From an uncultured delta proteobacterium (GTDB taxonomy: Bacteria > Myxococcota_A > Polyangia > Polyangiales > Polyangiaceae): a stretch of 64,000 nucleotides of DNA. How positions within the stretch are numbered: position 1 is the first letter of the stretch; every line of letters begins with the position of its first letter. Where the stretch lies: the NCBI GenBank assembly GCA_963782055.1, contig CAWAIF010000003.1, forward strand, positions 4,960,001 through 5,024,000. Direction: 5' to 3'. Shown piece by piece: positions 33,947 through 37,842 of the stretch. The notes under the pieces are model-generated. The model was not told the origin of the DNA, did not search any database, and saw nothing but the letters and a program-made list of their open reading frames with translations. The translations under genes and the position numbers were made by a program.

Positions 33947-35425
33947 TCAGCTCGGGGTCCGCGCGCGGCGCTTGCGACCCAGGCCGCGACGCTCCAGCAG
34001 GCGGTAGAGGGTGACGGCGTCGACCCCCGCCAGGGCGGCGGCCCGGCGCACGTCGCCCGACGTCTCGGCGAGCAGGTCCTCCAGGTAGCGCCGCTCCAGC
34101 GGGGCCAGCCACTCCTCGCGCAGCTCCCGCAGACCGCGTCGCGCTGCGGGGGCGGGGGCGGGCGCCGGGGCGACGATGGACCGCGGCAGGTGCTCCGGCC
34201 GGATCTCCTGCCCTGCGCTCAGGATCACCGCGTGCTCCAGCGCGTTCTTCAGCTCGCGCACGTTGCCGGGAAAGTCGTAGCTCGCCAGCGCGGCGAGCGC
34301 CGCCGGCGAGACGGGGCCCGCGGGCAGCGCGTGCCGCTCCGCCGCGAGCTTCACGAAGACGTGCGTCAGCACCTCCAGGTTGTCCTTGTAGCGGCGCAGC
34401 GGCGGCAGCTCGAAGGTGATGACCCCCAGCCGGTAGTACAGGTCGTCGCGGAAGCGCCCCTCCTTCACCATCGCCGCGAGGTCGCGGTTGGTGGCGCAGA
34501 CGAGGCGCACGTCCACGCGCTCCGGCGCGCCGTCGCTACCGAGCGGCTGCACCTCGCCGTACTCCACCGCGCGCAGCACCTTGGCCTGGAGCATCAGCGG
34601 GAGCTCGCCGATCTCGTCCAGGAAGAGCGTGCCGCCGTGGGCCTTCTGCATCTCCCCGATCTTGTGCGCGGTGGCCCCGGTGAAGGCGCCGCGGCGATGA
34701 CCGAAGAGGGTGCTCTCCAGCAGCGTGTCCGGCACCGCCGCCGCGTTGACGATGACGAACGGCCGATCGGCGCGCCGGCTGTTGAAGTGGATGGCGTGCG
34801 CCACCAGCTCCTTGCCCGTCCCGCTCTCCCCCTGGACGAGGACCGGCGCGCTGGTGGGCGCCGCGTACTCGATGCGCCGCTCCACCTCCGTCCACTCCGG
34901 CGAGAGGCCCTTGATGAGGAAGGGGCGTCCCGTCGCCGCGCGGGTCGCGCGCTCCAGCGCGGCGCGTCGAAGGAAGCGCGCCGACGACGCCGCGAGCGCC
35001 TCCAGCTCCTCGACGTGCTGCTCGCTGAAGGCGCCCGGCTCGCGCGCCGAGACGGTCAGCACCCCGATCACGCGGCGCTGGTAGCGAATGGGCACCGCGA
35101 CGATGGACCGGACCTCGAGGAAATACCGCGCGTAGTTGGGGTCCCCGCGCGTGTCGGCGGCGAGGTAGGGCGCGTCGTGCTCCAGCACCCAGAAGGCGAT
35201 GCCGTTGGGGCGGCCGTCGCGGCGCCGCTCGAGCACCGCGCCCGGGAGGTTCACCACCAGCCCCTCGACGACGTGGAAGTGCACCACGAGCGCGTCGCGC
35301 TTCGCGTCCCGGAGAAAGAGCGCGCCGTTGCGCGCCCCGGTCCGCGCGAGGGCCTCCTCCATCAGCCGCTGCTCGATGGTCTCCGCCTCCGCGGCGTGCA
35401 GTCGGTGCTCCGAGCCTCGCGCCAT
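33947..35425 (-). CDS. GAF-domain sigma54-dependent enhancer-binding protein (Fis HTH)
   Basis: N-terminal GAF (GIAFWV...RSIVAVPI); GESGTGKE, GAFTGA, LFLDEIGE, FRDDLYYRL, FPGNVREL; C-terminal HTH. Confidence 0.93.
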   Translation of the reverse strand: MARGSEHRLHAAEAETIEQRLMEEALARTGARNGALFLRDAKRDALVVHFHVVEGLVVNLPGAVLERRRDGRPNGIAFWVLEHDAPYLAADTRGDPNYARYFLEVRSIVAVPIRYQRRVIGVLTVSAREPGAFSEQHVEELEALAASSARFLRRAALERATRAATGRPFLIKGLSPEWTEVERRIEYAAPTSAPVLVQGESGTGKELVAHAIHFNSRRADRPFVIVNAAAVPDTLLESTLFGHRRGAFTGATAHKIGEMQKAHGGTLFLDEIGELPLMLQAKVLRAVEYGEVQPLGSDGAPERVDVRLVCATNRDLAAMVKEGRFRDDLYYRLGVITFELPPLRRYKDNLEVLTHVFVKLAAERHALPAGPVSPAALAALASYDFPGNVRELKNALEHAVILSAGQEIRPEHLPRSIVAPAPAPAPAARRGLRELREEWLAPLERRYLEDLLAETSGDVRRAAALAGVDAVTLYRLLERRGLGRKRRARTPS

Positions 35426-35449
35426 GGGATTGCGATGATTCCACTGGAC

Positions 35450-35463
35450 TTGCATTTCTGCAA
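35450..35463. promoter_or_regulatory. Palindrome TTGCA-N4-TGCAA, candidate enhancer (UAS)
   Basis: TTGCATTTCTGCAA in an AT-richer spacer about 75 bp upstream of the -24 box, with related TTGC half-sites nearby. Confidence 0.55.
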
Positions 35464-35536
35464 CAGTTGCTATCATTCGCACAACTACGGGCGCGCCGAC
35501 TCCGCGGTTTCCCGCGGGGAGCAGGAGGCGGAGGCG

Positions 35537-35552
35537 TGGCACGCGTCTTGTA
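35537..35552 (+). promoter_or_regulatory. Sigma54 -24/-12 promoter
   Basis: TGGCAC-GCGTC-TTGTA against consensus TGGCAC-N5-TTGCW (one mismatch), divergent from the activator gene. Confidence 0.7.
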
Positions 35553-35566
35553 AAAGGCCGCGCATC

Positions 35567-35767
35567 ATGAAGGTGCCCGTCGTCCTCGAGCCCAGCGTCC
35601 GCACCGGACGCGTCCGCGCCTACTGCCCCGACCTGCCCGGCTGCTCCGCCGTCGCCGGGTCGGAGCCGGACGCCCTCGCCCTGCTCCGTCGGCGCATCGA
35701 GGACTACTTCGCCCGCTCCCCCCTGCGCGCCGCACCCGGCACGCGCACCACCACCGTCGAAGTCTGA
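35567..35767 (+). CDS. Short HicB-like protein (N-terminal domain only)
   Basis: MKVPVVLE...RAYCPDLPGCSAVAGSEPDALALLRRRIEDYF resembles the HicB PDLPGC motif; 66 aa; no DNA-binding tail. Confidence 0.72.
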   Translation: MKVPVVLEPSVRTGRVRAYCPDLPGCSAVAGSEPDALALLRRRIEDYFARSPLRAAPGTRTTTVEV

Positions 35768-35790: not shown

Positions 35791-37071
35791 ATGAACCACC
35801 GCCTCGCCCTCGCCCTGCTCGCCTCGTCGCTCTTCTTCCCGGCCTGCGCCATGAACACCGGTGATCCCACGGCGTCCAGCTCCGGGGCCGCGCTCAGCAT
35901 GTCGGCGGACGACGCCGCGCGTGTGCTCGCGCTGGTCAACTACCCCGGCACCGACCGCACGACGCTGGACGACGCCGTGGGCCTGGACGCCCGCGCGGCG
36001 CAGAACATCGCGGCGTACCGCGCCGGCGACGACGGCGTCGTGCCGTCGGCGGACGACCGCTACTTCGGCGACCTCGGCGAGCTCGACGCCGTCCCGTACG
36101 TCGGCGACTCGGCCTTCCAGAAGCTCCAGGCCTACGCAGCCAACCACGCGGTGCCCGCGGCGGAGTCGGTGGAGGGCGTCTACTTCCGCGGCTGGCAGTC
36201 ACAGACGGTGGTGTGGGCGGTCGATCACCTGGACGAGGCGTCGCTCGACGCGGTGCTCGACTCCCGCGCCGCCAAGAATCTGGTGGCGGCCCGCCCCTTC
36301 TCCACGGTGACGGCCATGGGCCCGGTCTCGTACGTGGGCGGCAGCGCGCTCGCCAGCCTGCGTGACGCCGCGACCACGTGGTGGCCGCTGATGCAGTCCA
36401 ACGCCACCGAGAGCCTGGCCGGGACCTTCGACGGCGTCGCCTTCGACGAGCCGACGGCGGAGACGGCCCTGGAGATCGCCAACCAGGCGAGCGCGGCGCG
36501 GCTCACCGCGCATGGCGTGGCGACGCACCCCGCCGACCTGATGGTCGCCGGCCGCGCCTACACCACGCTCGCCGCGGTGGCGGGCGTCTCCGGCGTGGGC
36601 ACGGCGACGATGGCCGCCCTCCACGACTACGCGACGAGCGGCGACTGGGGCCAGGACCCCAACGCGTGCGTCGACGCCTTCCAGGCCGCGGTCTCGCCGC
36701 ACCTGGGCGATCTCTTGCTGATGAGCGAGAGCGATCGCCCGCTCGACCTCGTCTCGTACCCCGGCGCGGGCACGCAGGCGCCCACCGCCGACTCGGTGCT
36801 CGCCCTCGTCGGCGCGGAGGCGGGGAGCACCGCGGAGGTTCGCACCCTCGACTACTTCAAGATGGTGCTCGAGCCCTCCAGCGACAACGCCGACCCCAAC
36901 GCCGCGGCGGACGTGGTGGCGGCGATCGGGGCGCAGCTCACCGACGTCATCGTGGTGAAGGTGCACAAGCCCCAGAACGACCCCTACAGCGCCGAGGTGG
37001 ACATGTACGTGCTCGGCCGCACCTCCTGCGGCGATCTGGTGGGCCTCCACGCCATCGCGATCGAGACCTGA
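35791..37071 (+). CDS. Lipoprotein with three ComEA-like HhH repeats and a C-terminal NuiA-like (nuclease A inhibitor) domain
   Basis: Lipobox FPAC; repeats ending LDAVPYVG, MGPVSYVG, VAGVSGVG; C-terminus LLLMSESDRP...EVDMYVLGRTSCGDLVGLHAIAIET. Confidence 0.8.
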   Translation: MNHRLALALLASSLFFPACAMNTGDPTASSSGAALSMSADDAARVLALVNYPGTDRTTLDDAVGLDARAAQNIAAYRAGDDGVVPSADDRYFGDLGELDAVPYVGDSAFQKLQAYAANHAVPAAESVEGVYFRGWQSQTVVWAVDHLDEASLDAVLDSRAAKNLVAARPFSTVTAMGPVSYVGGSALASLRDAATTWWPLMQSNATESLAGTFDGVAFDEPTAETALEIANQASAARLTAHGVATHPADLMVAGRAYTTLAAVAGVSGVGTATMAALHDYATSGDWGQDPNACVDAFQAAVSPHLGDLLLMSESDRPLDLVSYPGAGTQAPTADSVLALVGAEAGSTAEVRTLDYFKMVLEPSSDNADPNAAADVVAAIGAQLTDVIVVKVHKPQNDPYSAEVDMYVLGRTSCGDLVGLHAIAIET

Positions 37072-37257
37072 ACCGGTCGCAGGCGCCGCGGCCCTCCGCG
37101 CGTCGGGCTTCCCGGCCTGGAATGGATCTCCGCACCGACCCCGCGCGGGCAGTTGCCGCGCGGCGCCGGCGCATCGACCGCCCCTGCTACTGGATGGTGG
37201 CCATGCCCGAGGGCGCGGCGGGCCCGGCGCTTATGTCCTGCATGGTCGGCGCCCGCG

Positions 37258-37842
37258 GTGCTGTGGCCGTCGGTGCGCGCGCTGCGCAAGCGACACCCGC
37301 GCCTGCTGCCTCGCCTCCTCGTCCTCGACCCCACCCACCTTCAGGAGTCGCTGCTGCGCGGCGAGGTGGACGTCGCGCTGCTCGACCGGCCGCCGCCACC
37401 CAGCGCGGAGCTCTTCGTCGAGCGGCTCGGGCGGCTGGGTCACGGCATCTTCGCGCCGCCCGGTCACCCCCTGGCGGGCCGGCGCAACCTCGATCTGCGG
37501 GAGGTCGCGACGTACGCGTTCGCCGTCGCCGCACCGCGCGCCGACGATCCCGTGCCGCCCGACCGCTGGCCCGCGGAGATCCCGCGCGAGGAGCTGCTGC
37601 GCGTGGCGGACGTCGCCATGGCCGCCGACGCGTGCGCGGAGGTCGGCGTGCTGGCGGTCCTGCCCGATCTGGTGGGACGAGGTCACGCCGGCGGGCTCCG
37701 CCGCCTCCCGGTGGCGCTGCCGTCTGGCGCGGAGGCCGATCTCTATGCGGTGGCCCGGGCGCCGGCGGGCGGCGCGCACCATGCCCGCACCGACGCCGCG
37801 CTGGAGGTGCTGCGCGCGCGGGCGGGTACGCTCTCGACCTGA
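37258..37842 (+). pseudogene. LysR substrate-binding domain without HTH (truncated or stand-alone)
   Basis: LWPSVRALRKRHPRL...LLRGEVDVALL...PPGHPLA...LAVLP; no HTH seen upstream. Start uncertain. Confidence 0.6.

Follow-up and report, generated by a model that had tools for sequence, protein, structure and literature searches.

Where proteins that inhibit secreted nucleases are known, they serve, to our knowledge, as an insurance inside the cell against its own enzyme, beside which they are encoded. What, then, might such an inhibitor be doing at the end of a predicted lipoprotein, behind repeats resembling a DNA receptor, in a genome where searches returned no cognate nuclease? The gene raising this question lies in a stretch of 64,000 nucleotides (hereafter, the window) and is an ORF of 426 codons (35791-37071, plus strand), open throughout and ending in ...AIET-stop. 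The original prediction, made from the letters of the DNA, had read it as a lipoprotein in which three ComEA-like repeats are fused to a nuclease-inhibitor domain, proposing that the protein binds extracytoplasmic DNA and shields it from NucA-like nucleases. The architecture itself was borne out by Pfam, by sequence search of the PDB and by a structure model: a signal peptide is followed by three repeats of the helix-hairpin-helix (HhH) type and, at the C-terminus, by a NuiA domain (Table 1); the lipobox also held, with its Cys19 invariant in all the aligned full-length relatives. Other details needed correction: the described pattern LD.RAA...YVG fits repeats 1 and 2, but the third HhH unit is divergent, and the segment LLLMSESD is indeed present but starts at 36712 instead of about 36670. 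The AlphaFold model (77 sequences, pLDDT 92) displays three helical units followed by an alpha/beta domain. The upstream sigma54 cassette and the missing cognate nuclease, both discussed below, went unnoticed in that prediction.

Table 1. Features of the fusion gene and its upstream region (window positions), with the evidence for each.
Feature	Position	Strand	Evidence
Sigma54 enhancer-binding protein, presumed operon activator	33947..35425	-	Pfam GAF, Sigma54_activat, HTH_8; divergent
Palindromic candidate enhancer, TTGC-N6-GCAA type	35448..35465		Pattern counts over loci
Sigma54 -24/-12 promoter motif	35537..35552	+	GGCA and TG invariant in 15/15 aligned upstream regions
66-aa small protein, HicB-derived by sequence, no adjacent HicA	35567..35767	+	14/29 loci; transitive HicB match
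Predicted lipoprotein signal peptide with Cys19	35791..35847	+	Cys19 kept in 77/77; lipobox-like (simple rule) in 74/77
HhH repeat 1, acidic G-x-D-G...D-D insertion	35899..36153	+	Pfam, model, alignments
HhH repeat 2, Arg159 invariant	36154..36399	+	Alignment, structure comparison
HhH repeat 3, divergent	36412..36648	+	Alignment, family profile, structure comparison
NuiA domain, Glu313 = NuiA Glu24, Thr426 = Thr135	36661..37071	+	Pfam, PDB search, Foldseek, alignment

The fusion is not accidental, since a homologue search returned 279 relatives, with PF07924 in 98 of the 120 listed; a chance fusion or a mis-assembly was thereby ruled out. The alignment used throughout (77 rows) was drawn from those 120 and holds full-length proteins with three repeats and NuiA; rows that were truncated, carried two or four repeats, had no NuiA or were extended by an N-terminal fusion were omitted. 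Among 31 genomic loci, the named lineages are nearly all Myxococcota, which makes it probable that the window, too, belongs to this phylum. A named and cultured species, Pyxidicoccus caerfyrddinensis (L016), carries the fusion gene. Automatic database labels call the family members either ComE-like or nuclease A inhibitor family. Directly 3' of the window gene, an ORF (37153-37842, plus strand) contains a LysR substrate-binding domain with no HTH match, possibly a truncated regulator, and no counterpart of it was seen in the related loci compared. Elsewhere in the genome, a paralogous lipoprotein (G000:C3:3040158-3041375, minus strand) carries two HhH repeats and ends in a domain reminiscent of the P-domain of proprotein convertases; in L001 and L003, genes of this kind immediately follow the NuiA fusion.

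The C-terminal domain matches Pfam PF07924 at residues 301-426 (E 3.9e-11; 43.8 bits vs. a cut-off of 22.1), and phmmer against the PDB retrieved 2o3b_B (E 1.4e-4; 5e-10 with the family profile). Foldseek, queried with the model, returned this chain as its sole match at E≤0.001 (E 1e-6; TM 0.71 over the target), and superposition on 1j57 by VIA-align gave Z 7.1 (rmsd 4.9, 129 aligned), the NuiA fold being thus recovered as foreseen. Identity to NuiA is 23-24%. Six residues (Ser312, Glu313, Ser314, Asp315, Glu425 and Thr426) are invariant in 77/77 sequences, and Ser312, Glu313, Glu425 and Thr426 are also kept in 13/13 diverse NuiA proteins, among them the real Nostoc protein, whose alignment gave the equivalences of Table 1; the predicted retention of the Glu and of the terminal Thr therefore stands. 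No domain is ever fused C-terminal to that Thr within the family. Glu24 of NuiA we take to be a residue used for nuclease inhibition, and the Asp75-Trp76 loop, presumably, a second contact site with the nuclease. In the clade of the window protein this loop is shortened and without Trp, and the neighboring hairpin carries an insertion, so that affinity or target may differ from those of NuiA; other repeat-NuiA fusions, e.g., L047, keep Asp75-Trp76. The available text of published work describes the C-terminal Thr of NuiA as coordinating the catalytic Mg2+ of the nuclease (PMC2790893, PMC5587815), and NuiA as a competitive inhibitor (PMC5758888). The window protein thus resembles NuiA of Nostoc (Anabaena) PCC 7120 (PF07924; PDB 2O3B, 1J57) in fold, Ser-Glu-Ser motif (Glu24), terminal Glu-Thr and free C-terminus. 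The Nostoc protein, however, is in the accessible part of its description a cytosolic one (PMC13522737), 135 aa long and encoded beside nucA, whereas the window protein has an export signal, three fused repeats, a probable disulfide, no Asp75-Trp76 loop, and no cognate nuclease found in its genome.

In a tree built from 59 NuiA domains (7 loci were excluded as partial, duplicate or divergent), the window protein falls in a clade of 23 rows with support 100/99. Together with the lost Asp-Trp loop and the clade's own invariant residues (Arg351, Glu361 and Asp315), this distinctness lends something to the idea that the domain was repurposed, i.e., that the pair formed by the Glu and the C-terminal Thr binds a metal or another metalloenzyme, the protein being a structural or signaling surface lipoprotein unrelated to nucleases. 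The highly varied N-terminal partners of NuiA go in the same direction. The best-conserved residues, nonetheless, are precisely the two used for inhibition, with nothing fused beyond Thr, and we hold such a repurposing to be improbable.

The protein is predicted to be exported and lipid-anchored, as its conserved lipobox supports. Two cysteines of the fusion, Cys293 and Cys413, occur together in 70 relatives, are both missing in 6 and occur singly in 1 (n = 77, the relatives not being independent of each other); this co-occurrence suggests a disulfide, consistent with export, and the two residues probably form one. The original prediction had regarded export as peculiar to this protein, given that NuiA is normally small and cytoplasmic, which did not hold up: among 29 NuiA loci of the phylum inspected, from 36 matches, a simple rule detects a lipobox in 26, the C-terminal ET is present in 26 and the Glu is retained in 28, while the N-terminal parts vary widely. 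Judged by these signals, the NuiA proteins of this phylum are, as a rule, exported. One divergent NuiA (L058:1087-1890) lacks a lipobox, has a long, helical N-terminal region and is altered at its C-terminus. Queried with an armatimonad NuiA, a search for further long fusions of this domain gave no match at E≤0.001, which counts as weak evidence.

Do the repeats bring DNA to the inhibitor? As originally conceived, they would attach to DNA outside the cytoplasm and keep the inhibitor on it, a DNA-guided shielding that might operate during uptake. Their HhH fold is related to that of ComEA: Pfam HHH_3 matched with E 7e-6 and 26.5 bits, slightly under its cut-off of 27 bits, the family profile matched the ComEA-related 2duy (E 1e-4), and VIA-align to HhH-type domains gave Z values of 5.3-8.6, "middling" by the tool's own scale (2duy, 5.6; 8dss, 5.3). 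The NCBIfam comEA model TIGR01259 scored 18.1 bits, under its cut-off of 152.35; a GspK- or PsbU-like identity was not adopted, as the Pfam scores for these were sub-threshold only. The available text on ComEA states that the Vibrio cholerae protein needs Gly60 and Lys63, the latter equivalent to Lys164 of Bacillus subtilis, and that the changes G60E, K63A or K164A abolish or sharply reduce uptake (PMC3879209, PMC9747964). In the alignment to B. subtilis ComEA, Asp66 and Ala69 of the window protein fall on the Gly60 and Lys63 positions. Across the family (77 members, and a repeat alignment of 32 rows, on which this argument is based), the Gly60 position is Asp in 72/77 for repeats 1 and 2 each, and the Lys63 position is Ala in 74/77 (repeat 1) and 73/77 (repeat 2); repeat 3 has Pro, Ala or Glu, and no Lys, at the latter. 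Superposition on ComEA upheld a fold of HhH type, but with the key residues replaced. The repeats have a median net charge of -6 (repeat 1), -2 (repeat 2) and -3 (repeat 3), in agreement with the initial caveat that they are acidic. In summary, double-HhH fold and extracytoplasmic location (predicted, in the window protein) are shared with ComEA (HHH_3, PF12836; PDB 8DFK, 8DSS, 2DUY), whereas here GhG has become GLD and YVG, the key Lys has become Ala, the net charge is negative, an acidic insertion is present, and the units stand in tandem. Binding of DNA in the manner of ComEA is not supported by these residues and charges, and the genome has a separate, basic ComEA-like gene with the canonical motif.

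Several observations still speak for the shielding of bound DNA. The Lys62 position holds Arg in 72/77 (repeat 1) and 77/77 (repeat 2), the second Gly of HhH2 is retained, and the acidic insertion might bind Ca2+, offsetting the charge. The genome also encodes ComEC, in addition to the ComEA-like protein. On the NuiA tree, at least three changes of the repeat-fused label are required, so the pairing of repeats and NuiA may have arisen repeatedly. The partners of the repeats point both ways. A profile search with repeat 1 returned 1,666 clusters at 50% identity; among 145 new proteins from the best 150 matches (Pfam at E≤1e-6), the partner domains were P_proprotein (13), NuiA (10), PLD (6), amidohydrolase (6), lamin-tail (4), TSP3 (2), RskA_C (2) and, once each, GH25 lysozyme, subtilase, UDG, RCC1, MopE and APP1, the remaining proteins having HHH_3 alone or no Pfam match. 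PLD, lamin-tail and UDG domains are often linked to nucleic acids; the same module, however, sits on lysozyme, subtilase and proprotein-convertase P-domain proteins, and clustering of the ORFs at 31 loci revealed no widely shared neighbor beyond the cassette described below, and no recurring competence gene was recognized. All in all, we consider DNA-guided shielding unlikely. Fused to many unrelated domains, the repeats behave as a mobile accessory module, and would be a spacer or anchoring module of Myxococcota, not a DNA receptor of the ComEA kind; that they bind DNA in some altered way is conceivable. They would represent a hitherto undescribed HhH-derived module, automatically annotated as ComE-like and DNA-binding despite the missing residues. 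Examples with 2-5 copies are P0241, P0243, P0244, P0249, P0251 and P0284, where the module is found on amidohydrolases, a UDG-like protein, a GH25 lysozyme and a subtilase.

Which nuclease would then be inhibited? No cognate nuclease gene adjoins the window fusion, and searches of the genome (97% complete) returned a single NuiA match but nothing for four His-Me finger families (PF01223, PF13930, PF14040 and PF04231). Cyanobacterial plasmids served as control for the pairing of NuiA with its nuclease: in 24/24 plasmid records with NuiA, all of them cyanobacterial, a comparison of positions by hand put the nuclease no more than about 300 bases away, and an armatimonad NuiA also stands beside a nuclease. 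In 251 sampled genomes of the phylum, by contrast with this control, NuiA was found in 34, PF01223 (the NucA family) in 13 and both in 2, i.e., PF01223 was not matched in 32 of the 34 NuiA-bearing genomes. This scarcity of partners adds to the case for a repurposed domain, and the conserved residues of orphan NuiAs could equally serve another role. One of the two genomes with both (G123) argues the other way: a secreted PF01223 nuclease is followed directly by a lipoprotein NuiA (L063:4373-5749), and the latter groups among the orphan lipoprotein NuiAs in the tree. L063 is thus a natural exported nuclease-inhibitor pair. In the other (G119), which encodes two lipoprotein NuiAs, the NucA-like nuclease is not linked to them, lying on a different contig. 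This arrangement offers some backing for a third explanation, in which the window protein restrains an exported nuclease of its own host, encoded elsewhere and belonging to another family, e.g., a divergent His-Me finger enzyme; the search of the own genome covered four families. Those four families are nonetheless unmatched in a genome that is 97% complete, and 94 neighboring proteins from 30 loci contained nuclease domains only in the known pairs, plus one RNase E/G gene, so that we regard a self-directed role as very unlikely. As for foreign enzymes, a genome of the same family in which NuiA was not matched contains a gene for a nuclease with 42% identity to Nostoc NucA, making kin plausible targets, and the presence of PF01223 in only 13 of the 251 phylum genomes suggests that targets would lie mostly outside the phylum. 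Separately, L065, L067 and L071 encode long proteins with a trypsin-like region (assigned by eye) and a C-terminal PF01223 nuclease, apparently with no signal peptides.

The fusion gene is also preceded by a conserved cassette (Table 1). An orthologue of the activator (63-86% identity; in the window its start codon was picked by reading the sequence) is divergent and adjacent in 14/29 repeat-bearing loci, the small ORF is present in 14/29, and both occur together in 13; activator matches in L012 and L017 were rejected as cassette members, being non-adjacent and limited to the AAA domain (40-45% identity). The sigma54 motif lies just upstream of the small ORF in 15/16 cassette loci, as against 3/14 others and 7.9% of background. 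Located 60-90 bases upstream of this motif, the palindrome occurs in 13/16 cassette loci, 4/14 non-cassette loci and 1.5% of background windows, a pattern fitted post hoc on these same loci; in independent loci, 2/5 carry it, and a version with a 5-base spacer was found in 0/30 loci. L014, L015, L020 and L023 have the palindrome upstream of the repeat gene and no activator next to it, a hint of control in trans. The small ORF starts about 4 nt past the predicted +1 in most loci (window 35537-35569), suggesting a near-leaderless mRNA.

The small protein is, on the ranking of its matches, probably HicB-derived. Against Pfam HicB_lk_antitox the match is weak (9/15 members at E≤0.1, best 1e-3), but the next-ranked matches of the small-ORF profile were HicB proteins in 16/16 scanned, with HicA among the neighbors scanned in 4. 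A PDB sequence search with the profile gave nothing meaningful. Probably homologous to the N-terminal domain of the HicB antitoxin (PF15919), it differs from HicB in that it has no DNA-binding domain, no adjacent HicA, and a position as first gene of a sigma54 operon; the genome holds a single PF07927 match, about 1.7 Mb away. Among the nine closest small-protein matches, no HicA adjoins, the activator and the repeats each adjoin in 8/9, and NuiA follows in 6/9, so that the cassette goes with the repeat lipoprotein more closely than with NuiA. At four loci (L021, L028, L084 and L085), activator and small ORF accompany the repeats and no NuiA was matched within the DNA examined. In two separate records (L011:5824-7269 and P0014), a HicB-like domain is fused in frame ahead of the lipoprotein signal peptide.

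We propose that the window gene encodes an inducible, envelope-anchored orphan inhibitor, directed against the NucA/EndoG-type (DRGH, His-Me finger) nucleases of other cells, a reading to which we give an even chance. The GAF-domain enhancer-binding protein would sense a small molecule, bind the palindrome and fire the sigma54 promoter; this anatomy is present in the DNA, and its working is deduced. The lipoprotein, by its sequence, would then be exported and lipid-anchored, with a NuiA domain stabilized by the disulfide, and, in the way NuiA acts on NucA, the free C-terminal Thr426 and Glu313 would occupy the Mg2+ active site of nucleases that reach the cell, the HhH repeats acting as spacer or anchor. 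Inhibition, target, location and induction are all inferred, and the 23-24% identity to NuiA and the shortened Asp75-Trp76 loop count against this reading, as do the closer link of the cassette to the repeats and the rarity of PF01223 in the phylum. The material protected might be extracellular DNA (eDNA) of the matrix or DNA under uptake; eDNA is described as strengthening the matrix of Myxococcus xanthus in the available text of one study (PMC3530553).

Precedents exist for part of this proposal in the periplasmic lysozyme inhibitors Ivy and MliC/PliC and in orphan toxin-immunity genes, i.e., inhibitors exported with no cognate enzyme and aimed at foreign targets. Here, by contrast, nucleases would be the enzymes targeted, the fold is another one, and control would be exerted through a sigma54 enhancer. 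The titles and abstract openings searched, mostly of open papers and with no supplements, contained no description of an exported NuiA, of the repeat-NuiA fusion or of the cassette. More broadly, and with a probability that we place well short of even, Myxococcota may have turned NuiA from cytoplasmic self-protection into phylum-wide orphan anti-nucleases of the surface or periplasm. In this lineage a dedicated GAF-sigma54 sensor would induce the inhibitor along with another orphan one, derived from HicB, as a sensed and inducible defense against the nucleases of other species, outside and possibly inside the cell. The proposal is testable, since the fusion gene is present in the cultured P. 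caerfyrddinensis; the analysis also delineates a compact sigma54 regulon, including a predicted enhancer. If true, the family would comprise natural, possibly broad-range inhibitors of DRGH nucleases, and an exported orphan inhibitor would defend extracellular DNA, be it of the biofilm matrix, food or transforming DNA, against neighbors and prey.
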